Assembly (NCBI GenBank): GCA_012840465.1 | Contig: DULJ01000061.1 | Span: 30,331-94,330 of the forward strand | DNA from: Bacillales bacterium | GTDB taxonomy: Bacteria; Bacillota; Bacilli; Bacillales; Bacillaceae_J | Direction: 5' to 3' | DNA length: 64,000 nucleotides | Shown here: piece after piece, positions 19,919 to 60,341 of the stretch | Layout of the letters: every line of letters starts with the position of its first letter | How positions within the stretch are numbered: position 1 is the stretch's first letter | Translations under genes and position numbers: made by a program | The notes under the pieces: generated by a model | Databases searched by the model: none | Told to the model about the DNA's origin: nothing | The model's input: only the letters and a program-made list of their open reading frames with translations

Positions 19919-20045
19919 CTTCTTCTTAAAGGCCGCCTAGTGAAAGTTCGTAGAAAATCTGTGCCGATTAATAAGAGAATAAATTCAATTTGTTCTTAAA
20001 AGAAAACATAATTATTAACTATTTATATAAAATAGTAAAACACGG

Positions 20046-20074
20046 TTGTAATAGTAGGTGATTCTATATATAAT
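20046..20074 (+). promoter_or_regulatory. Sigma-A promoter of the sortase-adhesin operon
   Basis: TTGTAA, 17-nt spacer, TATAAT. Same architecture as the lasso-cluster promoter at 25106. Confidence 0.55.
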
Positions 20075-20090
20075 GTTCTTTATAGGGAAC
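20075..20090. promoter_or_regulatory. SinR-type operator (inverted GTTCTYT heptads)
   Basis: GTTCTTTATAGGGAAC abuts the -10 element. Confidence 0.55.
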
Positions 20091-20145
20091 AACTGTCGAC
20101 AGTTTAGACTTACATAAAGCACACATTATATAAAAAAAGACACTT

Positions 20146-20161
20146 GTTCTTTAAAAAGAAT
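20146..20161. promoter_or_regulatory. SinR-type operator, second site
   Basis: GTTCTTTAAAAAGAAT in the leader. Confidence 0.45.
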
Positions 20162-20283
20162 AAGATATGAGTGCGAACCTATTCCTGCGGTGGTATGGAA
20201 GGTAAGCAAATCAGAAGGAATTAGAAGTTTGATCTTTTATCGTTTTTAAAAAAATCTAATTGAAAGGAGTTTCGGAATTTAAA

Positions 20284-20940
20284 GTGAAGATTTTGTTTTC
20301 AGCTTTATATTTATTTTTGAAAAACATGGGTTCTAGAAAAATAGCGACAATCTGTATTCTAAATGGCCTCATATTAATCTTATACCCTAGTGTAGAGGAC
20401 CGTGTATTTCAAAAAAAACAAGCTGAAGTATTGAAACAATGGGAAGACGATAAACAGATTACAAATCAGATTGACAATTTATCGACAACTGCTCAACCTA
20501 CCTCAAGTACTAAAAAAGAAATACCTGTCATGATTGATGGACACGAGGTGGTCGGTGTTATTTCTATCGATAACATTGATTTACAGTCACCAATCATTAA
20601 TGGTTCAGAAGAGCAATCGTTAAAGGTAGGAATTGGGGTGGTGGAACCTGACCGAAGTCCTGGAAACGTAAATAATTATGTTTTAGCCGGCCACAACAGT
20701 GCAACGTATGGAAAACATTTTAACCGTCTCAATGAGTTAGAAGTAAATGATCGAATCATCATTAAAACTATAAATAGTGACTACATCTATAAGGTTACTT
20801 CTATTTTTGTAGTGGATCAAGATAACCTTAGTGTTTTAGAGAATAGTAATTTAGCAGAGATAACGCTTATTACGTGCGAATATGATCGAAGGAAAAAACC
20901 GATATATCGACTGATTGTAAAAGGAACATTAGTAACATAA
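20284..20940 (+). CDS. Sortase (dedicated to the adjacent LPXTG protein)
   Basis: N-terminal TM, VLAGHN catalytic His region, ITLITCE catalytic Cys, C-terminal Arg (YRLIV). The start is uncertain (GTG 20284, TTG 20260 or ATG 20326). Confidence 0.85.
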   Translation: MKILFSALYLFLKNMGSRKIATICILNGLILILYPSVEDRVFQKKQAEVLKQWEDDKQITNQIDNLSTTAQPTSSTKKEIPVMIDGHEVVGVISIDNIDLQSPIINGSEEQSLKVGIGVVEPDRSPGNVNNYVLAGHNSATYGKHFNRLNELEVNDRIIIKTINSDYIYKVTSIFVVDQDNLSVLENSNLAEITLITCEYDRRKKPIYRLIVKGTLVT

Positions 20941-20958
20941 AAAAAGAGGTGAGAATAA

Positions 20959-23900
20959 ATGAATAAGCGAAATAACCCTATTCTGATTTGGATATTGATT
21001 CTTATGCTTATAACTCAAACTTTCGCACCGATAAGTATCGTATCCGCAACGGAATCAATAGGGGGTGAGGATAGTAGTATAATTGAATCAATATCGAATT
21101 CAACTGAAAATGATGTGGAAAATAGCGATACAAGCGCAAGTGAGAATGAGAATGAGAGTAGTGATAATATCTTAACTGAAAATGGGAAGAATGGGGATAG
21201 CTCTATTACTGTTGATCATGAAAATAGTGAGGAGGGTGACCGACAAGCTAGCGAGAGCGATGAAAATAGTAAGGAAAGCGACCAACCAGTTAACGAAAAC
21301 AATAAAATTAATGAAAAGGAGGATATTTATGTAGAGGCGGATATGCCACAAAAAGAGGAGAAAATACCACCTCTTGAACAACCTCCGGGACTCACGCCAT
21401 TTTTTCAATTAAATGGCGCTCCGCAGGTCATCCCTGAAAACTTGATTACACATGTTGTAATGAAGGATGGTGAAAATGGGAATCCGATCGAAGACATTCG
21501 ACCAGAACAAGGATCTAGGGTTTGGATTGAATATACATGGGCAGTTCAAGCAGGACATGAATATGGCGCAGGCTCTGTATTTACATTTAATCTCCCAGAT
21601 AAATTTAAAACTGGAATCCCGTTGTACGGAAAATTAACCGGTGAAGTTAATGCTGTGTATTTTGTTTCACCGGAAGGTCAAGTAACTTTCACGTTTAATG
21701 AAGAAATTGACGATAGCACAACTGGAAACTTTTTTGTTTGGAGAGAGCTTGATGAGAGCAAGTTTTCAGGGGGATTAAAGCAAGAGATTTTATTTCAGCA
21801 TGGAGAGTCAATCACTGTTCATTTTTTACCCAAAAAAGGCACGAATGAAATGTCTAAATCCGGTACAGCAGATAGAAACATGAATCCAAGTAAGATTGAC
21901 TGGGTTGTAGATTTTAACAAACATGAAAAAGAGATTCATAATGCTATCTTTCAAGATACTCTCCCGGACGGTTTAGAGATTGATTTGAATTCGATTGAAG
22001 TATATGAGTTAGAGGTGCAATTGGATGGAACTGTCATACAAGGTGCTCCATATGGAAGTTTAATACGAAGTCTACGTGATAACGGTGGTGGATTTAAGCT
22101 TACCTTTATTGATAGTCCAATTAATAAGGCTTATCGCGTGAAGTATACAACTAACGTAAAGCCGATACTCGAAGCTCCTTATTTGGCTACTTTCAAAAAT
22201 AACGCATTTGTTTCAGGAAACGAAAATCCAAATTTAATGGCCGATGCTTATACAGTAAAAGTCGAATTTATCAAGCCTTTGGGTAAATCGGCAAACCATT
22301 ATGATACCACCACACAAACAATTACCTGGGCGATTCAATACAACTACAATGAACAAGTGATTGAACAAAGTAATGCGTGGGTTGTGGATACATTTGATAC
22401 GACTCCTCAAAAGCTAGTGGATAACTCATTTGAAGTATATGAAATGAAAATTGGTAATGATGGAAAAGCAACGAGAAAAACCGGAAAAAAACTAAGTAAA
22501 GGTACTGATTATGATGTTGTTGGAGAAAGCAGTGGATTTAAATTATATTTTAAAAATCAAATTAGCTCGGCTTACGAAATTTTCTACAAAACAACAGCCA
22601 TCGATCGGGTCTATGATGATGTAGACATTGTAAATATAGTAAAGATGCATGAGGGCACAGAAGTAACAGTAACAAGAAAGATTGGTCAAGTGATTTTTTC
22701 AAAAAGCTTTGTTGGAATTGATTACAATAAAGATACTATTACATGGAAAATTAGTGTAAATGGTGACAAAAAAACGATGAAAAGTGTCATCATTACAGAT
22801 TGCTATAAAAATGAAGGCTTAATCTTACAACCTGATAGTATAACAATTCCAGGCTTAACGAAGGGCACGGATTATACTGTAGTTGCAAAGCCCACATATG
22901 ACGAAGGATTTATTATTACGTTCCAAAACGATATAACAACTAATCACGATATAACGTACGAAACGACATATAATCCTACTCAATATACTCCTACAGCTAT
23001 AAAAACTATATCATATAAAAATACAGCAACAATAGAATGGAAGGAGGGAGATACTTCTCAGATTCCAATTACTAAAACTGCAACTGCAAATTTGAATAAT
23101 GACACGAAACGAAATGGAGTGAAAACCGCAAGCTACAATGTCCAAACAAAGGAAATAACTTGGACCGTTGATGTGAATTATAATCGCCACGTAATCAAGA
23201 ATGCAGTTGTTAAAGATATTTATACGGGAGACCAAACATTCCTGCTTGAATCGTTGACTGTTAATAAATTAACGATTGAAGCTAATGGTACTAAAACGGT
23301 TGATGCTCCACATATCGTCAATGACGGCGATCTCACTCCTGTCGAAGTAGAGGGCAAAGTCCAAGGCTTTACATTAAAGCTTGGTGATATTAATTCTGCT
23401 TATCGAATTACGTATAAAACGAGCCTTGATAAACATCCTGTAGCTAAACAATATTCAAATAAAGCCCTATTGTACGCTGCAAGTGATCCCGATAATTTAT
23501 TGTTTAATGAATCTGCTACTGTCGAACCAATATATGGTGGGGAATATATAAACAAGTCAGGTAGTCAAGGTAATGGTGCAGAGGCAGAATTCGCCTATTG
23601 GACTGTTAATATTAATCGCAGTCAATCCAGTATAGATGGTGCTAAGGTAACTGATATATTGTCATCGAATCAAATATTAGATAAGGACTCTGTTACATTG
23701 TATACAACAACTGTGGCAGCTGACGGTAAGATAACGAAAGCAGCTCCTGCGGTTGAATCACTATACACGGTGATGGTTAACGGTAACGAATTGACAGTAA
23801 TTTTTAACGAGGCTATTGATAGACCTTATATTTTAGAATATAAGTCGTTTATCAATGCTGGAGATAAAGAGGAAATCAGCAACCATGTTACACTTACAGG

Positions 23901-24939
23901 CCAATCCACCGGAATAGTTAACGAAAAAGATGAGATTCGGGTTCCCGTATACTTTGCAGGGGCAGGAGGAAGTGCTTCTCAAAATAAAGGAAGCATTAAA
24001 ATTATCAAAGTTGATGCCAATACGAAGGCTCCTTTAGCAGGTGCTGTTTTTGAACTTTACGACAAAACAGGGAATACACTTCTGGAATCAATTACGACAG
24101 ACGTAAAGGGGGAGGCGGTATTTAAAGGGTATAGATACGGAGCTTATCAGCTGAAGGAAAAGGTTGCACCAAATGGCTACGCCATCACTGCTGAGTATAA
24201 GGATGGTAAAGAAATTAAGCTTAATAAAGAGGTCATTGAAATTACAGTTGAGAATAAAGAACTTAAGCAGGGCTTTACATTAACAAAGATTGATAAAGAG
24301 GAGCCAACGAAAACATTAGCAGGTGCAACCTTTAAGCTACAGAAAAAAGTGGAGGGTGGAACCTACGAAGATATAGAGGAGCTAACAACGAATGCAGCTG
24401 GAATCATTGCAAAAGGTGAAGTAACACCGGGTGCTTATCAATTAATTGAAACAATAGCTCCAAAAGGCTATAAACTAGATCCAACACCAATACCATTTAC
24501 TATTGTGTCTAATCAGATAAAGATTATTGTATTAGAAAGTAAAAATGAAAAATTAACAATGACAAACGATAAAAAGCGTTCAGGCGGAAGTTCATCATCT
24601 GATTCACCAGGGGATAAAAATCCAAAACCAAAAGAAGATCCAAAAAATAATGAGGAAGAGACACCCGATGAACCTGGGAAAGAAATAGTAGACCCCGACC
24701 AAGATCATACTAATACTAATCATCTAGACGGTCAACCAGTGGATCCAATCAATCAAAAAGAAAGTCCAAAAATACTTGATCCAATTAACAATAATCCTAG
24801 TACAAACGAACAACCTACTAAACGTATCCTACCCCAAACTGGGGAATATTCATCAAAACTACCTTGGATTGGTTTGGTACTTTGTTTAATTGGGATCGCA
24901 CTTTGGATTAGACGAAGCAGATGGTTCACCAAAGAATAG
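20959..24939 (+). CDS. LPXTG-anchored collagen-adhesin-like surface protein (acidic N-terminus, repeated Cna-A-like modules, two CnaB/SpaA-fold domains)
   Basis: Signal peptide. The module marker TW.(I/V)..NYN recurs (TWAIQYNYNEQ, TWKISVNGDKK, TWTVDVNYNRH, YWTVNINRSQ). CnaB-like segments GSIKIIKVDANTKAPLAGAVFEL and GFTLTKIDKEEPTKTLAGATFKL. Pro/Asp/Asn-rich stalk, then LPQTGE + TM + RRSRW. Confidence 0.85.
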   Translation: MNKRNNPILIWILILMLITQTFAPISIVSATESIGGEDSSIIESISNSTENDVENSDTSASENENESSDNILTENGKNGDSSITVDHENSEEGDRQASESDENSKESDQPVNENNKINEKEDIYVEADMPQKEEKIPPLEQPPGLTPFFQLNGAPQVIPENLITHVVMKDGENGNPIEDIRPEQGSRVWIEYTWAVQAGHEYGAGSVFTFNLPDKFKTGIPLYGKLTGEVNAVYFVSPEGQVTFTFNEEIDDSTTGNFFVWRELDESKFSGGLKQEILFQHGESITVHFLPKKGTNEMSKSGTADRNMNPSKIDWVVDFNKHEKEIHNAIFQDTLPDGLEIDLNSIEVYELEVQLDGTVIQGAPYGSLIRSLRDNGGGFKLTFIDSPINKAYRVKYTTNVKPILEAPYLATFKNNAFVSGNENPNLMADAYTVKVEFIKPLGKSANHYDTTTQTITWAIQYNYNEQVIEQSNAWVVDTFDTTPQKLVDNSFEVYEMKIGNDGKATRKTGKKLSKGTDYDVVGESSGFKLYFKNQISSAYEIFYKTTAIDRVYDDVDIVNIVKMHEGTEVTVTRKIGQVIFSKSFVGIDYNKDTITWKISVNGDKKTMKSVIITDCYKNEGLILQPDSITIPGLTKGTDYTVVAKPTYDEGFIITFQNDITTNHDITYETTYNPTQYTPTAIKTISYKNTATIEWKEGDTSQIPITKTATANLNNDTKRNGVKTASYNVQTKEITWTVDVNYNRHVIKNAVVKDIYTGDQTFLLESLTVNKLTIEANGTKTVDAPHIVNDGDLTPVEVEGKVQGFTLKLGDINSAYRITYKTSLDKHPVAKQYSNKALLYAASDPDNLLFNESATVEPIYGGEYINKSGSQGNGAEAEFAYWTVNINRSQSSIDGAKVTDILSSNQILDKDSVTLYTTTVAADGKITKAAPAVESLYTVMVNGNELTVIFNEAIDRPYILEYKSFINAGDKEEISNHVTLTGQSTGIVNEKDEIRVPVYFAGAGGSASQNKGSIKIIKVDANTKAPLAGAVFELYDKTGNTLLESITTDVKGEAVFKGYRYGAYQLKEKVAPNGYAITAEYKDGKEIKLNKEVIEITVENKELKQGFTLTKIDKEEPTKTLAGATFKLQKKVEGGTYEDIEELTTNAAGIIAKGEVTPGAYQLIETIAPKGYKLDPTPIPFTIVSNQIKIIVLESKNEKLTMTNDKKRSGGSSSSDSPGDKNPKPKEDPKNNEEETPDEPGKEIVDPDQDHTNTNHLDGQPVDPINQKESPKILDPINNNPSTNEQPTKRILPQTGEYSSKLPWIGLVLCLIGIALWIRRSRWFTKE

Positions 24940-24955
24940 CTGTATCATAAATAAT

Positions 24956-25009: not shown

Positions 25010-25105
25010 ATATCTATCCATTGTAATAGTATCATTGATAAATTGCGGCCGGAACAAGATTATAAAAAGTCAAAAATTTAATTAACAAAATACTAAAAAT
25101 AGTAG

Positions 25106-25134
25106 TTGAAATGTTAGGGAACTTCACGTAATAT
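25106..25134 (+). promoter_or_regulatory. Sigma-A promoter of the lasso peptide operon
   Basis: TTGAAA, 17-nt spacer, TAATAT. Confidence 0.55.
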
Positions 25135-25150
25135 ATTCTTTATAAAGAAC
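25135..25150. promoter_or_regulatory. SinR-type operator
   Basis: ATTCTTTATAAAGAAC directly after the -10 element. Confidence 0.55.
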
Positions 25151-25287
25151 AAAATTAGTTAATATTGACTATATAGAGTACGAAGGTGTTTTAAATATAG
25201 AATAATTTGCCACTCTATAGGACGAAAAAACGAGATTAGGAACATGCTGCTACGGCGGTATGAAAGGGAAACAAAGCAGGAGGAATT

Positions 25288-27219
25288 ATGAGTGCAATAG
25301 TTGGGATCTATCAAATGAATAATGAACCGGTATCGTCTGAACACGGAACTCAAATGATGAAAGCTCTAGAAAAATTTCCAGCGGATGATATTCAAGTATG
25401 GAAAAAAGAGAATATCTTTCTAGGATGCCATGCCCAATGGATTACTCCAGAGTCGATTGGAGAGCAATTGCCGTATTATGATGATCAGAGACAATTAGCG
25501 ATAACAGCTGATGCCATCATTGATAATCGTGATGAATTGTTTTCCATGCTTCAAGTCGATTATGAAGATCGAAAAACGATGCCTGATAGCCAATTAATTC
25601 TGCTTGCCTATTCCAAATGGGGTGAAGAGACACCGAAGTATTTGGTTGGGGATTTTGCATTTATGATTTGGGATGAACGGGAGCAAAAGCTGTTTGGTGC
25701 TCGGGATTTTTCAGGAGCAAGGACGCTTTACTTTTTCAAAAATGAACAAAGATTTTCGTTTTCTACGACAATTAAATCATTACTTACATTGCCTTATATT
25801 GAAAAAAAATTAAATGAACAGTGGATTGCAGAGTTTTTGGCAAATCCGGGGATGTTTGAGTCTCTTGATACATCGTCAACAGTGTATAACAGTATTCAAC
25901 AATTGTCTCCATCCCATTCTTTAACGATTGTGAATGGGAACATGTCATTAAAAAGATATTGCCATTTATATGAAGGAAAAAAACTAAAATTAAAATCAAA
26001 TGATGAATATGTAGAGGCATTTCGTGAAGTGTTTCAAAATACTGTTCGATCAAAGATGCGTACCCGTATGAAAGTAGGAGGCCATTTAAGTGGGGGGCTT
26101 GATTCTGGGTCAGTTGCTGCTTTTGCAGCTAAAGAGTTAAGAAAGAAAGGTCAACAGCTTCATACCTTTAGCTATGTACCCGTTGCTGATTTTGTTGATT
26201 GGACACATAAAAGCAGGATTGCGAATGAAAAACCATTAATTGAATCCACAGTAAATTATGTTGGGAATATCTCGCCAAACTATTTGAGCTTGCCGGAAAG
26301 AAACCCTTATTCGGAAATTGATGAATGGGTAGAAACAATGGAGACGCCTTATAAATTCTTCGAAAATACATTTTGGCTAAGGGGAATTTATGAAGAGGCT
26401 AGCCAACAGGGGGTTGGAGTCTTATTAAACGGGCAAAGAGGGAATTGGACAATATCATGGGGTCCAGTTTTTGACTATTATGCTCTTTTAATCAAAAAAA
26501 TGAAGTGGATCAGCCTTAACCAACAAATGAAAGAATATATGCATAAGGCTGGTACGGGAAGAAGGCGTATTTTATCTACAGTAAATAGAAAACTAATGCC
26601 TTTTATTTATGAAAGGACGATTGACAAAAACTCAGACTTTCCTATGTTTTTTAATCGGAACTTGGCGCTAAGAACAAATGTATTGGAAAAACTGAACGAG
26701 CATGGCATTGATCCTAGAGGTAGAATAGGGCCAAATTCATATAAAATAAGAAATGATCAGTTTCAACACTTATACTATTGGCTTAATACTGGTACATATG
26801 GGTCTAAGCTGTCATTGCGCTATGGAATAGTAGACCGCGATCCAACCAATGATTTACGTGTCATTCGTTTTTGTTTATCCGTTCCAGATGAGCAATTTGT
26901 TTTGAATGGATTTGATCGGGCTTTAATTAGAAGAGCGACAGAAGGATATTTACCTGATGATATACGCTTGAATATGCTTAGGAGAGGTGTCCAAGGTGCT
27001 GATGGTGTTCATCGAATGAAACTAGTTTGGGGAAAATTTCTGGATGAATGTAACGAGTTAAAAGGCGAACCCCTAATAAAGGAATTTTTGGACATCAATG
27101 TAATAGAAAAATGCATCAATCTTATGAAGAATGATCCAAAGCCTGAATTTGCATTTGCATTTGAATTTAAAGTTCTAATGAGAAGTTTGATCTTCTATCG
27201 ATTTTTAAAAAGTTTTTAA
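25288..27219 (+). CDS. Lasso peptide cyclase (asparagine synthetase B homolog, C protein)
   Basis: AsnB-like protein with N-terminus MSAIVG (no catalytic Cys2, as I recall is typical of lasso cyclases). PP-loop HLSGGLDSGS. Lies directly upstream of a lasso-type precursor. Confidence 0.85.
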   Translation: MSAIVGIYQMNNEPVSSEHGTQMMKALEKFPADDIQVWKKENIFLGCHAQWITPESIGEQLPYYDDQRQLAITADAIIDNRDELFSMLQVDYEDRKTMPDSQLILLAYSKWGEETPKYLVGDFAFMIWDEREQKLFGARDFSGARTLYFFKNEQRFSFSTTIKSLLTLPYIEKKLNEQWIAEFLANPGMFESLDTSSTVYNSIQQLSPSHSLTIVNGNMSLKRYCHLYEGKKLKLKSNDEYVEAFREVFQNTVRSKMRTRMKVGGHLSGGLDSGSVAAFAAKELRKKGQQLHTFSYVPVADFVDWTHKSRIANEKPLIESTVNYVGNISPNYLSLPERNPYSEIDEWVETMETPYKFFENTFWLRGIYEEASQQGVGVLLNGQRGNWTISWGPVFDYYALLIKKMKWISLNQQMKEYMHKAGTGRRRILSTVNRKLMPFIYERTIDKNSDFPMFFNRNLALRTNVLEKLNEHGIDPRGRIGPNSYKIRNDQFQHLYYWLNTGTYGSKLSLRYGIVDRDPTNDLRVIRFCLSVPDEQFVLNGFDRALIRRATEGYLPDDIRLNMLRRGVQGADGVHRMKLVWGKFLDECNELKGEPLIKEFLDINVIEKCINLMKNDPKPEFAFAFEFKVLMRSLIFYRFLKSF

Positions 27220-27238
27220 CTGAAGGGAGGTGACAAAA

Positions 27239-27364
27239 ATGAAAAAGAATTGGCAGAAACCAGAATTAGAAGTGCTGGATGTTAATATGACAATGGCTGG
27301 GCCAGGGCATAGAATTCCTGATGCCATACAGCCTGATCCAGATGATCCTGTTAAATATAGTTAA
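27239..27364 (+). CDS. Lasso peptide precursor, paeninodin-type (41 aa, not in the ORF track)
   Basis: GGGAGG lies 7 nt upstream. Product: MKKNWQKPELEVLDVNMTM-AGPGHRIPDAIQPDPDDPVKYS. Thr is at -2. In the core, A1 and D9 can form a 9-residue macrolactam. C-terminal Ser. Confidence 0.8.
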   Translation: MKKNWQKPELEVLDVNMTMAGPGHRIPDAIQPDPDDPVKYS

Positions 27365-27392
27365 GTCTTAAGTTTTTATTAATTTACTTAGG

Positions 27393-27430
27393 TTAACGCC
27401 CTCGTACTATCTTTGTGGTGAGGGCGTTAA
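27393..27430 (+). promoter_or_regulatory. Stem-loop after the precursor gene (partial terminator / transcript-stabilising hairpin)
   Basis: TTAACGCCCTC-16 nt-GAGGGCGTTAA with no T-tract. Confidence 0.5.
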
Positions 27431-27461
27431 GAATCAAGAACATTGGAGGCATTATGTAAGG

Positions 27462-28391
27462 ATGACCCAAAAAATGATTTATAAAGCATTTGGTTTAAAT
27501 GTGTGTAGTGATCTCCCTTTACCGGAATTACCAAAATTAAATAGTAAAGAAGAAAAAGTTGATATTTTTATTGAATTGTGTGATTTAACTTGTTTATGGA
27601 GTGAATTAGGTGAACCGGATCGTTTTTGCATTGTAAAAGGGAATTCAGTGATAATACATATACCCAATATAGCCATCTACTGTATAGAAAATGGAAATAA
27701 CATCTTAATTTCCCCTTTGAATGATACATGCGAAGATCAAGTTCGACTTTATGTTTTAGGTTCTTGTATGGGTGCCCTGTTAATGCAAAGAAGAATTTTG
27801 CCTTTACATGGTAGTGCAATCGTAATAAATGACAAGGCATACGCAATCGTTGGAGATTCGGGTGCTGGAAAGTCAACTCTAGCATCAGCCTTTTTAAGTA
27901 AAGGGTATCAGCTTTTAAGCGATGATGTTATTCCTATTTCTCTTTCTAATGAAAATTTTCCATTGGTAAATCCCGCCTATCCCCAGCAAAAACTCTGGCA
28001 AGAAAGCCTAGATGCATTCGGGATGGCTTCAAATGATTACCGACCGATTTTTGATCGGGAGACAAAATTTACGATTCCAGTAGCTTCACAGTTTTCATCT
28101 AAGACATTACCTTTAGCAGGTGTTTTCGAGTTAATAAAAACAGAAGCGGATGAAATTGAAATCTTGCCTACTATATCAGGCCTTCAACGATTACATACCC
28201 TATATTCACATACATATAGGAACTTTTTAATTGACCGTTTAGGAATAAGAGAATGGCATTTTAATATGACAGCAAAGATTGCAGATCAAATTGGGGTTTA
28301 CCAATTGCAGCGACCTATGAATCGATTTACGGCACATGAACTAACATCCCTGATACTAAATACGATCAATAAGGAAGTGATTAAGATATGA
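27462..28391 (+). CDS. HPr-kinase-like lasso precursor Ser kinase (K protein)
   Basis: P-loop VGDSGAGKSTLA in an HprK C-terminal-like fold. Occupies the kinase position of paeninodin-type clusters. Confidence 0.75.
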   Translation: MTQKMIYKAFGLNVCSDLPLPELPKLNSKEEKVDIFIELCDLTCLWSELGEPDRFCIVKGNSVIIHIPNIAIYCIENGNNILISPLNDTCEDQVRLYVLGSCMGALLMQRRILPLHGSAIVINDKAYAIVGDSGAGKSTLASAFLSKGYQLLSDDVIPISLSNENFPLVNPAYPQQKLWQESLDAFGMASNDYRPIFDRETKFTIPVASQFSSKTLPLAGVFELIKTEADEIEILPTISGLQRLHTLYSHTYRNFLIDRLGIREWHFNMTAKIADQIGVYQLQRPMNRFTAHELTSLILNTINKEVIKI

Positions 28392-28705
28392 CTACAAATC
28401 AAAAGTTCTCATTAAACCAAGAAGTTGTCCAAGGTAAAAATAATATTGTCAGTGAAATGGGCGAAGAGAAAGTGATGTTAAGTATCGAAAACGGTAAGTA
28501 TTACAACTTAGGTGAAATTGGCGGTGAAATTTGGGACTTAATGCAGGAGCCAATTAAAGGTGATCAGGTGGTATCCATCTTAATGTCAAAATACGATGTT
28601 GAACAAACGGAATGTGAGGAGCATGTCATCTCCTTCCTAAATCAATTAAATGAAGAAAGTTTAATTGAAATTGTTGCAAATGCAATGCAATGGTCAACTA
28701 ATTAA
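28388..28705 (+). CDS. PqqD-family RiPP recognition element (lasso B1)
   Basis: 105 aa, PqqD-like (VMLSIENGKYYNLGEIGGEIWDLM). Start overlaps the kinase stop. Confidence 0.8.
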   Translation: MTTNQKFSLNQEVVQGKNNIVSEMGEEKVMLSIENGKYYNLGEIGGEIWDLMQEPIKGDQVVSILMSKYDVEQTECEEHVISFLNQLNEESLIEIVANAMQWSTN

Positions 28706-28714
28706 GGAGAATAA

Positions 28715-29200
28715 ATGATGAGAGTGTTATCTAAGCTAATTACATTTTTTTCTCAACGTCCAAAAACAATTCTCCTTTTGATGGAAGCGTATCTTTTTTT
28801 AGGATTGGCTCGCATTCTTAAAATGATGCCGTTTTCTAAAGTGGCCCCATTGTTGGGTGATCACATGAAGGAAACCTCTCATATCGATTTGGATAGGAAC
28901 AATAGAATGATTAAAAATGTCTCCCATGCAGTCCATATTATGAGCCGTTATACTTTTTGGGAGAGTCATTGCCTAGTTAAGGCCATTGCTGGGATGAAAA
29001 TGCTTGAAAGACGGGGAATCGATAGCACCCTTTATCTAGGGACTGCGAAAGATGAAGAAGGCAAAATGATTGCTCATGCTTGGCTACGAAGCGGTCCATT
29101 TTATATTTCAGGCGCAGAAGGGATGGACCGATTTGCGGTAGTAAGTAAGTTTGCCAAGAGGATAGGCGATAATCTATTAGAAGGGGAAAGCGATGAATAA
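28715..29200 (+). CDS. Transglutaminase-like leader peptidase (lasso B2)
   Basis: Catalytic Cys (ESHCLVKA) and His (IAHAWL) in the usual lasso B2 spacing. Confidence 0.8.
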   Translation: MMRVLSKLITFFSQRPKTILLLMEAYLFLGLARILKMMPFSKVAPLLGDHMKETSHIDLDRNNRMIKNVSHAVHIMSRYTFWESHCLVKAIAGMKMLERRGIDSTLYLGTAKDEEGKMIAHAWLRSGPFYISGAEGMDRFAVVSKFAKRIGDNLLEGESDE

Positions 29201-30365
29201 TACTGTTGATCTTAATCTGACAAAGATTCCGCAGGAATTAAAATTAATACTTGCAATAATAAAGGATGTAAATAATGGTAGTGTTCTAAAGGAATACAAC
29301 CATAATATTAACTGGGATGTATTTCTGAAACTTGCCTTTCATCATCGTCTCTACCCATTGTTATATTTAAATCTTGTGCGGATGGAAAATAATTGGATTC
29401 CCGCCAATGTTCTTCAAACCCTTTCACACTCCTATAAAAAAAATACCTTTAAAATGCTTCACTTAAGTGGGGAAATGGAAAAACTCAGCAAGTTATTTAT
29501 GGAACATGAAATACGTTCTCTGGTCCTTAAGGGACCTGTTCTTGCAAAAGATCTTTACGGGGATCTGTCTATGCGAACTTGCGGAGACTTGGATATTCTA
29601 ATTTCAATTGATGATTTGGAGAAGGTTGATAAATTGCTTGTCGGTTTAGGCTATGAAAAAGATGAATATATCCAAACCCTATTAAATGATTGGAAATGGA
29701 GACATCATCATTTCACATACTATCATCCGATTAAGGGGACCAAAATTGAAATACACTGGAGACTGAACCCTTCTCCAAGCAAGGAACCGAATTTTAATGA
29801 GTTATGGGAAAGAAAACGACAAAGTGAAATTACAAGTTACCCAATCTATATATTGAGTGAAGAAGACTTATTTTATTTTCTTGTAACACACGGAGCCCGT
29901 CATGGATGGTCGCGACTGCGCTGGTTGGTAGATATTCATCAAATAGTACAAAAAAAGTTGAATTGGGACATCGTCCAAAAACTATTAAAGAAATATCAAT
30001 GTCAAAAAATAGGGGGGCAATCCCTCATTCTCTCAAAGCAGCTTCTGCTTACAATTTTACCAAAGGAAATAAGAATACTCACTACATCTAAAAGATCAAG
30101 AAAGCTAGCCAGTGAAGCGATTTTTTATTTAGAGAGAATGGTCAACTTACATTCAGATCCTGTCCCAAGAGATGTGGCAAAATACCATGCAAGTCACTTG
30201 TTTTCCTTACTGTCATTTCAGCAAAAAGTGGTCTATTTCTTGAGTGTGCTACACCCGTTTTATACCGATGTCGAGACATTCCCATTACCGAAGAAACTAC
30301 ATTTTTTATATTTTCCGCTTCGTCCATTTTTAATGATTTGGAGAAAAGCCAGAAAAGCGGCTTGA
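29193..30365 (+). CDS. Nucleotidyltransferase-family tailoring protein (N protein of Firmicutes lasso clusters)
   Basis: GDLDIL nucleotidyltransferase motif and HW..NP region. Position is conserved in paeninodin/pseudomycoidin-type clusters, from memory. Confidence 0.65.
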   Translation: MNNTVDLNLTKIPQELKLILAIIKDVNNGSVLKEYNHNINWDVFLKLAFHHRLYPLLYLNLVRMENNWIPANVLQTLSHSYKKNTFKMLHLSGEMEKLSKLFMEHEIRSLVLKGPVLAKDLYGDLSMRTCGDLDILISIDDLEKVDKLLVGLGYEKDEYIQTLLNDWKWRHHHFTYYHPIKGTKIEIHWRLNPSPSKEPNFNELWERKRQSEITSYPIYILSEEDLFYFLVTHGARHGWSRLRWLVDIHQIVQKKLNWDIVQKLLKKYQCQKIGGQSLILSKQLLLTILPKEIRILTTSKRSRKLASEAIFYLERMVNLHSDPVPRDVAKYHASHLFSLLSFQQKVVYFLSVLHPFYTDVETFPLPKKLHFLYFPLRPFLMIWRKARKAA

Positions 30366-30384
30366 CCTTTGGAGGACTTTAGTT

Positions 30385-32187
30385 ATGAAACAGGTCTTAT
30401 ACTTTTTTAATCAATTATACTCTTATTCCGGGAATAAACTATTTACCAATCTCCTAGGAATGATCTTCATTAGCCTATTGGATGGTATGGCCTTACTATT
30501 ATTGATTCCCGTTATTAGTTATAGTGGAATCTTTCGATTAGATGAAAGTACGATGCCTTTCATTAAGGGTCTTGCCTTGCTTAGTCAATTACCTACTACA
30601 GTAGGTCTTTCACTTATCTTGGTGTTATTTTTGATTGTTAACATTGTCCAAAATCTGTTTCAGCGGTATGTAACCATCGAAAATGTCAAGATTCAGCATG
30701 GTTTTGCCCGATATTTGCGCGGAGAGATTTATGAAGATTTACTTCGTGCGAATTGGGACTTTTATATAAAAAGAAGAAAGTCTGATCTGGTTAATACAAT
30801 CACAGCTGAACTTGCCCGTGTAAGTGCGGGAACCAATACTTTTATACAATTTATAACTGCCATCATTTTTACAATAATTCAAATAGGAATTGCTTTTTTG
30901 TTATCTCCTGAAATTACCTTGTTTGTTTTATTAAGTGGGGGCATTTTAGCGATTTTTTCTCAGGGATTCATAAAAAGGTCACGATTACTTGGAAGTAGAA
31001 CATCTGAGAATGGGAAAAACTTTTTAGCGGGTATAACAGATAATTTTAATGGGATAAAGGATATTAAAAGTAATACATTGGAACCATCTCGTGTGGACTG
31101 GTTTCAATCAATAACTAAGCGTATGTATGATGAACAAATGGAGTATATCAAATTAAAAATGGCTTCCCAGTTTTATTATAAAATCGCTTCTGCCGTTTTA
31201 ATCACCGTTTTTATTTTTTTATCTGTGAAGTTATTTCATGCACAGGCTGCGCAATTAATGATTGTTGTCGTAATCTTTACTAGATTATGGCCAAGGGTAA
31301 CAGGGATCCAGTCAAGTCTGGAGCAAATTGCTATCACAGTTCCGGCGCTAAAAGCTGTTATTAGCTTAAAAATGGAATCCCAAGCTGCAAAGGAATGTGA
31401 TCATTTAGATGGATCTGATATCATCCCAATCGATATTCAAAAAGAGATTGAGTGTCGTAATGTGTACTTTAGGTACGATCAAAATGAAAGTTCATATGCA
31501 TTAAAGGGTATAAATGTTAGCTTCCCTGCGAACCGCATGACGGCCGTCGTTGGGCGATCAGGTGCAGGAAAAAGTACGTTGATTGACCTTTTAATGGGAC
31601 TGAATCTTCCTGAAAAAGGGGAGGTTCTTTTGGATGGGATACCGTTAACAAAGAAAAAACTTTTGTCATTTCGGCGGTCAATTAGTTATGTGCCACAAGA
31701 TCCCTTTTTATTTAATGCTACGATAAAAGAAAACTTATTAATGATTGAACCTTCAGCAAGTGATGAACGAATGTGGGAGGCACTTGAATTCTCTTCAGCG
31801 GTAGAGTTCGTCCAAAAACTTCCACAGGGACTTGACACATTTATTGGTGACCGTGGAGTAAGATTATCCGGTGGAGAAAGGCAAAGGATTGTCCTTGCTA
31901 GGGCAATATTACGAAATCCATGCATTCTTGTATTAGATGAAGCAACTAGTGCGTTAGATACTGAAAATGAATCGAAAATTCAGGCTGCATTGGAAAGATT
32001 AAAAGGGAAAATGACGATAATAGTGATTGCACATCGTTTATCAACGATTCATAATGCGGAACAAGTAATCGTATTAGAGCAAGGAGAAATTATTCAAAAA
32101 GGTGGATTTAATCAGCTCGCAAAAGAAAAAAGAGGGGTATTTAGCCATCTATTAGATAGCCAGCGGAAGTTAGCCATTAGGGAATAA
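30385..32187 (+). CDS. ABC exporter, fused TMD-NBD (lasso D protein)
   Basis: Six TM segments plus Walker A GRSGAGKST, signature LSGGERQR, Walker B ILVLDEATS. Confidence 0.9.
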   Translation: MKQVLYFFNQLYSYSGNKLFTNLLGMIFISLLDGMALLLLIPVISYSGIFRLDESTMPFIKGLALLSQLPTTVGLSLILVLFLIVNIVQNLFQRYVTIENVKIQHGFARYLRGEIYEDLLRANWDFYIKRRKSDLVNTITAELARVSAGTNTFIQFITAIIFTIIQIGIAFLLSPEITLFVLLSGGILAIFSQGFIKRSRLLGSRTSENGKNFLAGITDNFNGIKDIKSNTLEPSRVDWFQSITKRMYDEQMEYIKLKMASQFYYKIASAVLITVFIFLSVKLFHAQAAQLMIVVVIFTRLWPRVTGIQSSLEQIAITVPALKAVISLKMESQAAKECDHLDGSDIIPIDIQKEIECRNVYFRYDQNESSYALKGINVSFPANRMTAVVGRSGAGKSTLIDLLMGLNLPEKGEVLLDGIPLTKKKLLSFRRSISYVPQDPFLFNATIKENLLMIEPSASDERMWEALEFSSAVEFVQKLPQGLDTFIGDRGVRLSGGERQRIVLARAILRNPCILVLDEATSALDTENESKIQAALERLKGKMTIIVIAHRLSTIHNAEQVIVLEQGEIIQKGGFNQLAKEKRGVFSHLLDSQRKLAIRE

Positions 32188-32201: not shown

Positions 32202-32807
32202 GTGGTTAATAAAAGGTTTATAAGCATTACAATAATAGCAATTTTTATAATGATACTAGTGGCAACGATGATGCTGACAAAAGCAGGTGAATTTCTTGTT
32301 ATAAATGAAAAACCAATAAAATCAGATGTCATCATTATGCTAAGTGGCGGGGGAATAGAGCGTTTAGAAAAAAGTGTCGAGTTGTATCAACAGAAGTACG
32401 CCCCTTTTTTAATCATATCGAATGGCAGTGAGGACAATTTAGCCCTCGCGGCACAAACCATAGGGGTCGAGTGCGAATCACTGATTTTAGAAAATAGGGC
32501 CAAAAGTACGAGGGATAATGCATTCTATACGAAAGAACTGATGGAAAAGTATCAATTTGATTCTGCAATTGTCGTTTCCTCCGATTATCATATGAGGAGA
32601 GTCAAAAGTAATTTTGCCCACGCCTTCCGGGGTAGTGGGATACGACTAACCTATGCATCTGCATCAAGCCCTGGGTATGATCCGGAACGGTGGTGGTCAA
32701 CAAAAACTGATCGCCGGATAACGGTTATTGAGTATATAAAACTGGTGGGAAATTTTTTTGGAATTCATGGAAAGAGTGCGAAGGAGAAATTGGAAGAATT
32801 ATCTTGA
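32202..32807 (+). CDS. DUF218 / YdcF-SanA-family membrane-anchored protein
   Basis: N-terminal TM, then a DUF218-like core (VIIMLSGG, STRDNA, VVSSDYHMRR). GTG start behind AAGGAG, 15 nt after the exporter stop. Confidence 0.7.
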   Translation: MVNKRFISITIIAIFIMILVATMMLTKAGEFLVINEKPIKSDVIIMLSGGGIERLEKSVELYQQKYAPFLIISNGSEDNLALAAQTIGVECESLILENRAKSTRDNAFYTKELMEKYQFDSAIVVSSDYHMRRVKSNFAHAFRGSGIRLTYASASSPGYDPERWWSTKTDRRITVIEYIKLVGNFFGIHGKSAKEKLEELS

Positions 32808-32832
32808 CTTGTTCTTTATAAAGAATTATAAT
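32804..32832 (+). promoter_or_regulatory. Near-consensus sigma-A promoter of the eps-like operon
   Basis: TTGACT, 17-nt spacer, TATAAT. The spacer itself is a SinR-type box. Confidence 0.6.
32811..32826. promoter_or_regulatory. SinR-type operator inside the promoter spacer
   Basis: GTTCTTTATAAAGAAT. Confidence 0.6.
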
Positions 32833-32920: not shown

Positions 32921-32936
32921 GTTCCTTATAAAGAAC
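32921..32936. promoter_or_regulatory. SinR-type operator in the eps leader
   Basis: GTTCCTTATAAAGAAC. Confidence 0.55.
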
Positions 32937-32969: not shown

Positions 32970-33668
32970 ATGGAGGAAATCATGCAAAAAGAAATTAACT
33001 TAAAGGTGTTATTTGATGTTATCAAAAGGCATATATGGCTAATTTTTATAATTACTGGCATTACAGCTATGGCAAGCGGCTTATTAAGTTTTATTTCAGA
33101 GGAGCCTTCAGCAGTTTACCAATCCTCAACTAGCATTTTACTAAACTCAAATGAAAATGACTCCACGAGTACGTTGGAGGTCATTTTAAGAGATCGTACT
33201 GTATTAAGCAGTGTAATCACAGAACTAGGACTCCATCAAACAACGAATAAATTAAATGAACAAATTACTTTTATTGATCAAGGCGGAAAGATTGTTAAAA
33301 TTGCTGTTCAGGATACGAATCCGGAACTGGCCGCTGACATCGCCAATACAACTGCAGCGATCTTTATAAAACAAATAGGAAATATTCTTGGAATATACGA
33401 TACGAGAATTGTATCAGAGGCGCTAGTAAGTAATCTCCCTATTTCTACCAAGGAGGGGGGCTCCTTAGTTAAAAATATCATGCTTGGGGTTGCGGCAGGA
33501 ATTGTCGTTGGAATTGGCATCGTTCTTTTTCTCGATAGCTTGGATGACTCCATACAATCAGAAAATGAAATTGAACAATTGCTTGAACTTCAAGTTATTG
33601 GTTCAGTCTCAAAAATCACGAAAGTAAATGTGCAAAATAAGCCTGGTGAGCGATTAAGGAAGAGGTGA
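32970..33668 (+). CDS. epsA: Wzz/YveK-type chain-length determinant, transmembrane modulator of the BY-kinase (EpsA-like)
   Basis: N- and C-terminal TM segments and a Wzz-like ectodomain. Paired with the kinase gene. An alternative start is ATG 32982. Confidence 0.8.
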   Translation: MEEIMQKEINLKVLFDVIKRHIWLIFIITGITAMASGLLSFISEEPSAVYQSSTSILLNSNENDSTSTLEVILRDRTVLSSVITELGLHQTTNKLNEQITFIDQGGKIVKIAVQDTNPELAADIANTTAAIFIKQIGNILGIYDTRIVSEALVSNLPISTKEGGSLVKNIMLGVAAGIVVGIGIVLFLDSLDDSIQSENEIEQLLELQVIGSVSKITKVNVQNKPGERLRKR

Positions 33669-33672
33669 AAAA

Positions 33673-34314: not shown

Positions 34315-34358
34315 GCATGTATCCACCTAGTAAAAAGTTACTTTTTTTTTGACTTTGT

Positions 34359-34374
34359 GTTCTTTATTAAGGAT
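34359..34374. promoter_or_regulatory. SinR-type operator (degenerate) in the epsB-epsC spacer
   Basis: GTTCTTTATTAAGGAT, with an inverted ATAAAGAAT about 20 nt downstream. Preceded by TTGACT. Confidence 0.35.
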
Positions 34375-34404
34375 ACAAATGGATTGTATAAAGAATTGCA
34401 GATT

Positions 34405-34520
34405 TTTGGTGATGTCTCCTAGCCGTTATCAATGGAGGCACTCGGTCACGCTGTGGGTTTAAATGAACCTTAGACGCCAGTCGTCGAAAGTGTAACGTGA
34501 GGGAGGGTTGGATGCCCTAT
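34405..34520 (+). ncRNA. Structured RNA candidate in the position of EAR (eps-associated RNA antitermination element)
   Basis: A 305-nt gap lies between the epsB-like and epsC-like genes. It holds a locally GC-rich segment with nested helices TCACG(34446)/CGTGA(34496), GGGTT(34455)/AACCT(34466), GACG(34473)/CGTC(34482) and CTCC/GGAG (34417/34434). Confidence 0.45.
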
Positions 34521-34619
34521 TCTATTAAAATATTTACTTATAAATCCTTAGATAAGGGTATATAGGTAAATGTTTTAATAAAAATGCGTTTTAGTTAACT
34601 AGTTATTGGAAAGGGGTGA

Positions 34620-56804: not shown

Positions 56805-57149
56805 ATGATTGGTGAAAATATTAGTAATCTTAGAAAACAAAGAGGTCTAACATTATCAGAGCTTGCGGAAAAAGCACTTATTTCCAAGTCGTATTTAAGC
56901 AATATTGAGCGGAGTTTAAACAAAAATCCGTCGATTCATGTATTAGAGAAAATTGCCGGTGTTTTGCAAGTGGATCTTCAAAAGTTAATAAAATCTAAAA
57001 AGGAGATGGAAGAATCTAGGCCGCTAATTGATGAAGAATGGATGAGTTTAGTTAAGGAATTTAAAGAAGTGGGCATCGAAAAAGAAAATGCTCAGAACTA
57101 TAAAATACTTTTTGAATTTATAAAATGGCAACAAGAGAAAAATAAATGA
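56805..57149 (+). CDS. Second SinR-family regulator (SlrR-like paralog)
   Basis: MIGENISNLRKQRGLTLSELAEKALISKSYLSNIERSLNKNPSIHVLEKIAGVL aligns with the SinR HTH. The C-terminus has a Sin-type helix pair (DEEWMSLVKEFKEVGI ... FEFIKWQ). Confidence 0.8.
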   Translation: MIGENISNLRKQRGLTLSELAEKALISKSYLSNIERSLNKNPSIHVLEKIAGVLQVDLQKLIKSKKEMEESRPLIDEEWMSLVKEFKEVGIEKENAQNYKILFEFIKWQQEKNK

Positions 57150-59383: not shown

Positions 59384-59444
59384 AATTAGAATCTTGAATA
59401 TACCTTGCCCTTTATTAAGAATAAGTGAAGCGCAGATATATATT

Positions 59445-59468
59445 TATCCACTTAGTGGATATTTTTTT
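59445..59468 (+). terminator. Short rho-independent terminator
   Basis: TATCCA-cttag-TGGATA followed by TTTTTTT. Confidence 0.5.
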
Positions 59469-59522
59469 ATCTATTTTGTCTTTTTTAACGAATAAAAGAA
59501 GTTTGAAAAAGGGGAGCAATTC

Positions 59523-60185
59523 ATGTATGAAATCGTTAAGTCAGTAAGACAGCAAAAACAATTTAAGAATACGTGGGAGTATTTTTGTGATTTTTATGGG
59601 TGGCACAATGACCCATATGCGAAAAACGGGATCCGGTATAATCTTTTATTGCCTAGTAAGAGAAAAAAGGTCATTGGTACGATTGAGTTTATTCCCTACA
59701 ATTCAATGAATCCGGATAGTACTGTTGAAGGGAAATTTCAGTTTTCTAGATTTGATTTCATAATGTCCCATCCAAATCGGGTTTGGGAGATTGATAAGCT
59801 ATGTCTGCATGGGGACTTTCATCGCCAAGGATATTTTGAGAACTTTATGCATGTTTTTTATGACCATTCAAAAAGACATCAGCCTAAATACTATATAGGA
59901 CTTATGGAGAAGCGTTTGTTTAGAATGCTCAGAATTTCATTTGGTTTAGGTCTGAAACAAGCGGGAGAAGCACTTGTTGGCCCTAGCACTGCTCTGATTC
60001 CATTTGTTTTCGATATAGAGGTGCTGCTGCAAGATAAAGAAACAGTAAGAATGTTGCTGTCTAAATCAAAGTTTTCTGAGAAGGACAAAGTCCCAAAATC
60101 CCCTAGGGTCTCCTTATTTAATATACATAGTACAAATAACCTCTTCAGAAGGTTGTTTAATCATATCGACAAAAAACTGGATTGA
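59523..60185 (+). CDS. Hypothetical protein, possible GNAT-fold acyltransferase
   Basis: RBS GGGGAG. The segment VWEIDKLCLHGDFHRQGYFENFMHVFYDH resembles GNAT beta4-alpha3 (motif A, R/Q-x-x-G-x-G/A relaxed). No other recognisable domain. Confidence 0.4.
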   Translation: MYEIVKSVRQQKQFKNTWEYFCDFYGWHNDPYAKNGIRYNLLLPSKRKKVIGTIEFIPYNSMNPDSTVEGKFQFSRFDFIMSHPNRVWEIDKLCLHGDFHRQGYFENFMHVFYDHSKRHQPKYYIGLMEKRLFRMLRISFGLGLKQAGEALVGPSTALIPFVFDIEVLLQDKETVRMLLSKSKFSEKDKVPKSPRVSLFNIHSTNNLFRRLFNHIDKKLD

Positions 60186-60210
60186 CTATTTTTCAAACAG
60201 GGTATATATT
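60182..60210 (+). promoter_or_regulatory. Sigma-A promoter of the orphan precursor-exporter unit
   Basis: TTGACT, 17-nt spacer, TATATT. Overlaps the stop of the upstream gene. Confidence 0.45.
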
Positions 60211-60220
60211 AAAAACGGTG

Positions 60221-60236
60221 GTTCTCTATTAAGAAT
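60221..60236. promoter_or_regulatory. SinR-type operator
   Basis: GTTCTCTATTAAGAAT. A further half site, ATTCTTTAT, lies at 60250. Confidence 0.5.
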
Positions 60237-60325
60237 AATGCAATTCTAGATTCTTTATTAATCAAGGGGAACCCAAGATAATTTACTAGAAATATAGTGA
60301 ATTATGGAGAAAAACACACTATGGT

Positions 60326-60341
60326 GTTCTTTATTAAGAAT
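60326..60341. promoter_or_regulatory. SinR-type operator next to the precursor RBS
   Basis: GTTCTTTATTAAGAAT, 10 nt upstream of GGAGG. Confidence 0.5.

Follow-up and report, generated by a model that had tools for sequence, protein, structure and literature searches.

The stretch of DNA analysed here, 64,000 nucleotides of contig DULJ01000061.1 from a Bacillales bacterium (hereafter the window), carries four units on its plus strand whose promoter regions share a palindrome of 16 nucleotides (nt) resembling the operator of the repressor SinR. These units are a sortase-adhesin operon, a lasso peptide cluster of the paeninodin type, the exopolysaccharide (eps) operon, and a second precursor peptide gene with its own ABC exporter. 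The window also encodes SinR and its antirepressor SinI on the minus strand, as well as a SinR paralog. A reading of the sequence alone (the original prediction) had taken the palindrome for a SinR operator and the four units for one regulon.

When the window was searched for the 16-mer GTTCTTTATAAAGAAC, allowing up to three mismatches, 12 matches were found, compared with 0.76 ± 0.91 in 100 dinucleotide shuffles, none of which (0/100) reached that count. The eight box positions of the original prediction (20075, 20146, 25135, 32811, 32921, 34359, 60221 and 60326) were all recovered by this search, and the additional matches, at 37594, 38126, 50859 and 53160 and each with three mismatches, are all intragenic, had not been listed before and look like noise. 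The degenerate pattern GTTCTYT-NN-ARAGAAC, with at most one mismatch, was found at 20075, 20146, 25135, 32811 and 32921, all five sites being intergenic. Each of the eight listed boxes has at least one half-site GTTCTYT, exact or with one mismatch, and the boxes form an inverted repeat of the 7+2+7 type, thus showing both the half-site and the arrangement of a SinR operator. In B. subtilis, SinR recognizes the half-site GTTCTYT, and the inverted duplex TTTGTTCTCTAAAGAGAACTTA (GTTCTCT-AA-AGAGAAC) is bound with a dissociation constant of 300 nM, 10 times tighter than tandem or single sites (PMC3163267).

The boxes had been described as intergenic, with the exception of that at 32811, which was placed in a promoter overlapping the 3' end of a DUF218 gene situated between the lasso cluster and the eps promoter. 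This box itself lies past the stop codon of the DUF218 gene (32805-32807), and what overlaps that gene is the -35 hexamer of the promoter alone. The weaker or half sites proposed at 19992, 59407, 60250 and about 18985 are present as degenerate matches only, and comparative support for them was not found.

The comparative set was built with the window's lasso kinase as query. Out of 394 relatives confirmed by tblastn, the best 80 were kept as loci of ~20 kb each, homologues of the window proteins were mapped on them, and boxes with up to two mismatches were recorded in the 450 nt upstream of the mapped genes. The loci come from many Bacillales genera, among them Bacillus sensu lato, Lederbergia, Neobacillus, Aquibacillus, Oceanobacillus, Virgibacillus, Salipaludibacillus, Alkalihalobacterium, Evansella, Sutcliffiella, Cytobacillus, Metabacillus, Brevibacillus, Ammoniphilus, Paenibacillus and Cohnella. 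Among species-representative genomes the highest kinase identity was 72% (Bacillus aerolatus), so none of them is a close relative, and an identical 20.6-kb stretch was found in a public run assembly.

A box was present, at the orthologous position, in 72 of 102 regions upstream of the cyclase gene lasC and in 16 of 17 upstream of epsA; for lasD, which served as an operon-internal control, it was found in 1 of 77. The count for lasK was 7 of 81, several such kinases opening a transcription unit of their own, and the background density was 0.073 boxes per 450 nt, true sites included. Boxes cluster at fixed offsets across loci. With at most one mismatch, 120 boxes were counted in 1.59 Mb, 110 of them within the non-coding 16%, and the genes following these 110 are lasC (62), epsA (17), lasK (4), epsC (2), a beta-helix gene (1) and others (24), several of which look polysaccharide-synthetic as judged by sequence inspection only. 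The proteins are only 50-70% identical across loci, a divergence at which intergenic DNA evolving neutrally would be expected to be randomised. Nine lasso promoters, when aligned, had a mean identity of 45%, with the invariant columns concentrated in both boxes.

A position matrix built from 206 intergenic sites, pre-selected on the half-site pattern and dominated by G1, T2, T3, C4, T5, T6 and T7, gave the consensus T-GTTCTTT-AT-AAAGAAC-A. The AT spacer had been left free in the search, yet A occurs in 182 and T in 172 of the 206 sites. In metagenomes, a search with the exact 16-mer, which is not biased to these loci, gave lasK, eps or sinR contexts in 6 of the 80 matches listed; most of the 80 are unrelated chance matches across many habitats, and the figure is not a genome-wide frequency. 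One metagenome contig with 57% G+C (L100) carries an exact box and a box with two mismatches upstream of a lasK-lasD pair (1324-4451), and the link between operator and cluster may extend past the low-GC Bacillaceae.

Promoters and boxes of the four units

The promoters at 32804, 20046, 25106 and 60182 have exactly the geometries that had been described, both on reading of the sequence and in a consensus scan. Promoter-like matches overall were not enriched in that scan (51 found vs 60.7 expected), and because of this the promoter calls gain weight solely from conservation.

The eps promoter (32804-32832, TTGACT-17-TATAAT, 11/12 consensus positions) is the best promoter-like match in 16.6 kb, and the box at 32811-32826 occupies its 17-nt spacer. 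In the window and in all 16 other loci with a box, exactly one base separates TTGACW from this element, which runs up to the -10 hexamer. The eps operator thus appears to be built into the promoter spacer, in a register that is invariant in 17 of 17 promoters of a matrix operon. A second box (32921-32936, GTTCCTTATAAAGAAC) follows 110 nt after the first one; of the 16 other loci, 15 have an equivalent at a distance of 73-115 nt downstream, as does the window. The third and weaker box (34359-34374) lies 49 nt upstream of the eps-associated RNA, or epsC RNA (34407-34518, Rfam RF01735, 112.7 bits), and boxes with one to three mismatches are found within ~140 nt, mostly 20-70 nt, upstream of this RNA in 16 of 19 loci that bear it. 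Examples between epsB and epsC are those at about 16329 in L001 and about 16946 in L077. Such positional conservation could point to an operator or promoter inside the operon, in front of the eps antitermination element.

The eps operon itself (32970-56743) starts with a Wzz-like epsA, a tyrosine-kinase-like epsB and epsC, the three genes covered by the Pfam scan (32970-36452), and continues from 36471 to 56743 as an unbroken run of open reading frames (ORFs) on the same strand, beginning with a galU-like gene at 36471 labelled by tblastn. From the orthologous loci L208-L210 we infer glycosyltransferase and aminotransferase roles for some of the later genes. The lasso cluster is found directly upstream of the epsA-epsB-epsC-galU operon in at least 16 loci.

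That cluster spans 25288-32187 in the window and comprises, as identified with Pfam, the genes C, A, an HPr-kinase-like K, B1, B2, N and D. The precursor A (27239-27364) has 41 residues (MKKNWQKPELEVLDVNMTMAGPGHRIPDAIQPDPDDPVKYS), with a leader containing the WxxP motif and a core ending in serine (MKKNWQKPELEVLDVNMTM-AGPGHRIPDAIQPDPDDPVKYS). Besides the Asn_synthase/GATase_7 cyclase (C), separate genes encode the PqqD-type recognition element (RRE; B1) and the Transglut_core3 protease (B2), which is the split-B arrangement, and NTP_transf_5 (1.7e-66) for the nucleotidyltransferase N and ABC_tran/ABC_membrane for the exporter D are clear matches. The Hpr_kinase_C match, at 29.2 bits and E 8e-7, is below the Pfam gathering threshold of 33.3 bits; the kinase assignment is backed by the 394 confirmed relatives, the best 80 of which are almost all found in C-A-K-B1-B2-N-D clusters. 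On this gene and peptide content, the cluster is of the paeninodin/pseudomycoidin type as defined in PMC13381572.

The sigma-A-like lasso promoter (25106-25134, TTGAAA-17-TAATAT) is abutted by the box at 25135-25150 (ATTCTTTATAAAGAAC). Elsewhere, the commonest layout is TTGACA-17-TAATTT, with the box 6-14 nt past the -10 hexamer and covering the start-site region; the TTGACA hexamer recurs in the seven sequences from other species in the lasso-promoter alignment. Other species usually have another box 60-150 nt beyond the first, and the window lasso leader has lost it. As a separate observation, many loci (L001-L004, L008, L012, L015, L021, L024, L025, L027, L028, L031-L034, L036, L040, L062 and L066) contain tandem cyclase genes, mostly with an adjacent precursor, before one shared kinase/B1/B2/N/D set. 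In the loci most similar to the window, boxes are found at the first of these pairs only, and in several others at both or at the second only.

The sortase-adhesin unit encodes a class D sortase (20326-20940) and an adhesin of 1326 residues with collagen-binding and SpaA domains (20959-24939), both identified by Pfam. Its sigma-A-like promoter (20046-20074, TTGTAA-17-TATAAT, 10/12 consensus positions) is followed by a box that abuts the -10 hexamer (20075-20090, GTTCTTTATAGGGAAC) and, 71 nt after it in the leader, by another (20146-20161, GTTCTTTAAAAAGAAT) that aligns with the second box of lasso promoters from other species. The promoter and leader (20030-20260) show 74% identity with their counterparts in the lasso cluster (25090-25290), sharing the -35, the -10 and the first box. 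A 39-nt block (20185-20223) matches the lasso leader at 25250-25288 in 32 of 39 positions, and the local alignment has a z of 9.3 against 1000 shuffles. This block, copied in one direction or the other, spans the lasso ribosome-binding site, left as a relic in the sortase leader. A known RNA family as the cause of this likeness was discarded, because a permissive Rfam scan of both leaders returned nothing relevant. The similarity is a local duplication that is not seen in lasso leaders of other species, from which we infer that the adhesin operon was probably recruited in this lineage through duplication of a promoter cassette. The sortase has few relatives. The inclusion of this operon in the regulon, as originally proposed, holds as regards the presence of promoter and boxes, which are strong in sequence, but they derive from a duplicated lasso promoter and leader and are unsupported by conservation.

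The second precursor had been called an orphan. This description has to be abandoned, as the peptide is one of a conserved family of precursors that go together with a GNAT-like gene and mostly have an ABC exporter close by. In the window, the order at 59523-62469 is the GNAT-like gene, the precursor and the exporter. The GNAT-like protein (59523-60185, plus strand) has 220 residues and no Pfam match, and belongs to a family tied to second-type precursors, with at least 95 members in Bacillaceae, some of them named GNAT by their sources. The promoter (60182-60210, TTGACT-17-TATATT) is followed 10 nt past the -10 hexamer by the box at 60221-60236 (GTTCTCTATTAAGAAT) and, 105 nt after that, by the box at 60326-60341 (GTTCTTTATTAAGAAT), which is located just before the ribosome-binding site of the precursor (60363-60536). 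The latter has a WxxP leader and a core that starts with K and ends in DS, and the second ABC exporter occupies 60667-62469.

A precursor-type ORF of 46-48 residues precedes the GNAT-like gene in Bacillus sp. FJAT-50079, Cytobacillus purgationiresistens and Jeotgalibacillus soli. Despite the different gene order, boxes head the GNAT/second-precursor units in all three species, and the J. soli unit is directly followed by an eps operon with a box set of its own. Because boxes head such units in three genera, those at 60221 and 60326, though imperfect, mark a conserved type of unit. The four second-type peptides have in common a Trp, a downstream LExLD stretch and an MT(M/L) end, and the proline of WxxP is replaced in the Cytobacillus peptide (WKSL); their cores start with K, have a Pro/Gly/Asp-rich middle and end in DS or GS. 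They may represent an undescribed peptide class that would use the recognition machinery of lasso clusters. The GNAT-precursor pairs are located at 59523-60536 in the window, 4754-5624 in L085, 4764-5609 in L086 and 4750-5627 in L087, with precursors of 46-58 residues, and the presence of an acidic residue at positions 7-9 is inconsistent among them.

The assignment of the second precursor to the class of linear polyphosphorylated peptides (LPP), defined by a SipW-like signal peptidase and a YxxPxVLxHQxIxFETxxS leader, was considered and rejected: the leader is of the lasso type with WxxP (KKQWRKPNLEALEV), and none of the ORFs at and around 59523-62469 looks like a peptidase, the secreted repeat protein that follows the exporter having been judged by eye only. 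An LPP-like or lasso-like unit was observed in L209 (14572-16348), where a ScmC/kinase-like gene and a PqqD gene are divergent from an ORF of 78 residues, an ABC exporter and an NTP_transf_5 gene, and the 430-nt divergent promoter region contains four SinR-type boxes.

Other features of the window include a beta-helix protein encoded downstream of the SinR paralog and before the gene at 59523, and a secreted protein with S-layer-homology-like repeats, as judged by eye, that follows the second exporter (62568-64000, plus strand), runs off the window and has no box upstream; it is a further cell-surface component beside the proposed regulon. On the minus strand, a strong match to the BsrF small RNA (6286-6398) comes immediately before an S-adenosylmethionine (SAM) riboswitch (6098-6202, same strand), both upstream of a gene listed at 5248-6111. 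Because the ORF start at 6111 overlaps the SAM aptamer, it was probably placed too far upstream.

SinR, SinI and the SinR paralog

Domain searches and alignment bear out the sinI-sinR pair and the second SinR/SlrR-like gene that had been proposed. The sinR gene (18108-18431, minus strand) encodes a protein of 107 residues with an HTH_3 DNA-binding domain (Pfam, 3.6e-16) and a SinI-type oligomerisation domain (2.2e-14). It aligns over its full length with B. subtilis SinR (PDB 1b0n/3zkc; E 2.5e-37), and the recognition helix AKSYLSSIER is identical. The antirepressor gene sinI (18510-18665, minus strand) encodes 51 residues (Pfam SinI, 1.1e-9), and directly upstream of it, in the 5' leader of sinI-sinR, there is a cyclic di-GMP (c-di-GMP) riboswitch aptamer of the c-di-GMP-I-GGC family (18686-18767, minus strand; Rfam RF03167, 64.8 bits vs a gathering score of 59). 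The same layout of riboswitch, sinI and sinR was found in 5 of 7 other lasso loci that bear sinR, with the aptamer at 16658-16742 in L027, 16388-16492 in L040, 20141-20231 in L059, 17372-17463 in L060 and 15942-16031 in L073. This suggests that the SinI antirepressor is under cyclic-dinucleotide control.

The paralog (56805-57149, plus strand) has 114 residues, lies 62 nt past the last eps gene and is 48% identical to SinR. Such paralogs form a distinct clade of about 113 residues, with Ser33 changed to Asn in the recognition helix and an insert of 3 residues in the C-terminal domain. In B. dakarensis, a B. fengqiuensis-like contig and P. alginolyticus (loci L208, 8001-8345; L209, 8001-8348; and L210, 10001-10339), they occur at or after a DegT-family gene, either at the end of the eps operon or inside it, and P. 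alginolyticus has two SinR-like genes at that position. A box upstream of the paralog gene was sought by analogy with slrR, and it is absent in the window, L208 and L209.

Of the 80 loci, 13 have sinR or the paralog no more than 10 kb from the lasso cluster. The canonical sinR is found near it in L027, L037, L040, L046, L059, L060, L061 and L073, usually with a riboswitch-bearing leader. The paralog is found beside it in L016, L017, L022, L023 and L053 (the B. pseudomycoides group; L022 and L023 represent the same region, present twice in one genome), the hosts being B. pseudomycoides, B. rhizoplanae and B. yunxiaonensis. In B. subtilis, SlrR differs from SinR at residue 33, a change proposed to alter its specificity (PMC3163267), and because of this proposed shift the binder of the boxes could be SinR, the paralog or a heteromer. 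Altogether, the binder would be a SinR-family repressor, and canonical SinR is a more likely candidate than the paralog.

A candidate regulon and its alternatives

These observations can be integrated in a model in which a SinR-family repressor (that encoded at 18108-18431, possibly with the paralog at 56805-57149) would bind T-GTTCTTT-AT-AAAGAAC-A. With boxes lying on or just past the core promoter, the bound repressor would block RNA polymerase at the four units, namely the eps operon, with its box in the spacer, the lasso cluster, with the box abutting the -10 hexamer, the sortase-adhesin copy, and the second precursor with its exporter. The second box, present 60-150 bp downstream at most promoters, could allow a SinR tetramer to bridge two dyads through DNA looping. 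SinI would titrate SinR and bring about derepression, with the c-di-GMP-type riboswitch in the sinI leader as a possible input, so that at the switch to biofilm growth the cell would make the lasso peptide, the second peptide and the adhesin alongside the exopolysaccharide.

The proposal of a SinR-type operator and a single regulon thus finds support in the match of half-site and arrangement, the identical recognition helix, the conserved positions at lasso and eps promoters and the scarcity of boxes in operon-internal regions. We consider it likely that the palindrome is a SinR-family operator and that the four units, the peptides among them, are made together with the biofilm matrix. By unit, the case appears strong for eps and lasso and moderate for the second precursor, and for the adhesin it has no backing from conservation.

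Certain results speak against a regulon of this extent. About 30% of lasC upstream regions are without a box, so box control is not universal. The box-less regions include those of 5 of 6 Paenibacillus and Cohnella loci, of both Salipaludibacillus loci lacking a second cyclase gene, and of second cyclase genes of tandem pairs. The sites at 34359 and 60221 have three mismatches each to the 16-mer, and no boxes were found at the nearest relatives of the sortase (42-47% identical), in Brevibacillus borstelensis and a metagenomic contig. The frequency of boxes at unrelated promoters is known from the 1.6 Mb of flanking DNA only. Distances between paired boxes show a 10.5-bp phasing that is weak (Rayleigh p about 0.003) and comes from non-independent loci; this phasing is only suggestive, in that it would suit a tetramer joining two dyads that lie on the same helix face. 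Finally, the content of a SinR regulon cannot be assumed from homology, as that of B. thuringiensis differs greatly from that of B. subtilis (PMC3909190).

How the boxes are to be understood depends on several alternatives. If the binder were mainly the eps-linked paralog, the operator could serve a negative feedback, or it could be read by a heteromer with SinR, as SlrR forms. This is possible, although we hold it to be the less probable course of events: the paralogs are a separate conserved clade, with the change at residue 33 that was proposed to alter the specificity of SlrR and with their C-terminal insert, and they are found directly beside lasso clusters in three species of the B. pseudomycoides group and at the eps DegT-family gene in three loci, but the boxes have the form of the canonical SinR inverted repeat, it is canonical SinR whose recognition helix is identical, and canonical sinR-sinI is itself found near the lasso cluster of the window and of 8 other loci. 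Control by canonical SinR and reading by the paralog are not mutually exclusive. A regulon smaller than the one proposed, in which only the eps and lasso sites are functional and those of the sortase and second-precursor units are inert relics of duplication or weak chance matches, is unlikely in our view. It would agree with the copied sortase promoter and leader, with the box-less nearest sortase relatives and with the imperfect sites at 60221 and 60326 (three and two mismatches to the 16-mer, respectively, and two each to the degenerate pattern); nevertheless, the sortase copy keeps two boxes at canonical positions (abutting the -10 hexamer, and 71 nt further on) with one mismatch each to the degenerate pattern, and second-type units are boxed in J. 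soli, C. purgationiresistens and Bacillus sp. FJAT-50079.

The remaining alternatives dispense with SinR altogether. Other XRE-type proteins or nucleoid proteins can make use of AT-rich palindromes, and the box might also be a structural element of the promoter, free of any repressor. Both notions seem highly improbable, given that half-site, spacing and symmetry equal those of the high-affinity SinR duplex, that eps, the canonical SinR target, is boxed, and that sinR genes are physically linked to the clusters; the register of the box relative to the -10 hexamer differs between lasso and eps promoters, which argues that the box is not itself a promoter element. As for chance, the AT-rich base composition of the genome (~36% G+C) and the four noise-like intragenic matches would be in its favor, but the shuffles, which never reached the observed count, and the extreme positional conservation across genera refute it, and we give it next to no credence.

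If the boxes are indeed operators of a SinR-family repressor, a bolder proposal can be made, which we put forward tentatively and with more doubt than confidence. The paeninodin-type and GNAT-linked peptides might not be antibiotics; instead, they might serve the Bacillales biofilm matrix as dedicated components or signals, with production confined to cells in which SinR is inactivated and with phospho-glycosyl C-termini possibly tied to the exopolysaccharide. The trigger might be the cyclic-dinucleotide riboswitch on sinI, and deletion of sinR might then act as a general switch for silent clusters.

Relation to known systems

Paeninodin-type lasso clusters are found in hundreds of Bacilli genomes. 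The paeninodin-like and LPP clusters were reported to co-localise with capsular polysaccharide loci and, in stationary-phase P. alginolyticus, joint up-regulation was seen for a lasso gene, an lpp gene and epsG; in that work, the biological roles 'remain unknown' and a biofilm role is 'tempting to speculate' (Popov 2026, PMC13381572). An operator shared by lasso and eps promoters would provide a concrete regulatory mechanism for this joint expression and leads to a testable functional hypothesis, namely, that the peptide belongs to the matrix programme. Activation of the clusters by sinR deletion or sinI overexpression also becomes simple to try. In the case of the pseudomycoidin cluster, no product was detected in B. 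pseudomycoides, the one native host for which a test of this kind was found (Zyubko 2019, PMC6993621), which is consistent with repression. The cluster described here has the same genes (C, A, K, B1, B2, N and D), WxxP leader and C-terminal Ser as the paeninodin and pseudomycoidin clusters of those two reports. In contrast, neither of them names a regulator or operator, and the conserved SinR-type box is a new element. A search of the accessible literature gave no paper linking SinR to lasso peptides, the only two co-mentions being irrelevant.

A close relative of the proposed circuit is the SinR/SinI control of epsA-O in B. subtilis, with which it shares the half-site and the 7+2+7 repeat, an orthologous repressor and antirepressor, and an eps target that bears the RNA. 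The two differ in that here a near-perfect 16-bp palindrome is placed inside the -35/-10 spacer of the eps promoter. They differ also in content, as the regulon would here add the lasso cluster, the second precursor with its exporter and the sortase-adhesin operon, and the sinI leader contains a c-di-GMP-type riboswitch. B. subtilis is not known to have such a lasso cluster. The adhesin operon, with its copied promoter and leader cassette, would in addition illustrate how such a regulon grows by recruitment.

Regarding the riboswitch, one of the c-di-GMP class was listed ahead of the sinI gene of Bacillus methanolicus (Irla 2015, PMC4342826), the same position as in the window and the 5 other loci. 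In contrast, the window element matches the GGC variant RF03167, and the link with a lasso cluster is not drawn in that report.

The regulation of natural products by SinR has a precedent in B. thuringiensis, where the genes for the lipopeptide kurstakin and the toxin Hbl, and not eps, are under the control of SinR (Fagerlund 2014, PMC3909190). The likeness is that SinR represses a secondary-metabolite locus, that of kurstakin, along with biofilm genes, and because of this, SinR regulons can be regarded as plastic and able to include natural-product genes. However, in B. thuringiensis the metabolite is non-ribosomal and eps is outside the SinR regulon, whereas here a ribosomal lasso peptide cluster and eps share one operator; the words 'consensus', 'motif', 'binding site', 'GTTCT' and 'palindrom' do not occur in the text of PMC3909190. 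While both the operator and the way in which it would act belong to an already known kind, what is new in comparison with these systems is the inclusion in the proposed regulon of widespread and functionally unexplained peptide clusters, together with a fixed design of promoter and operator.

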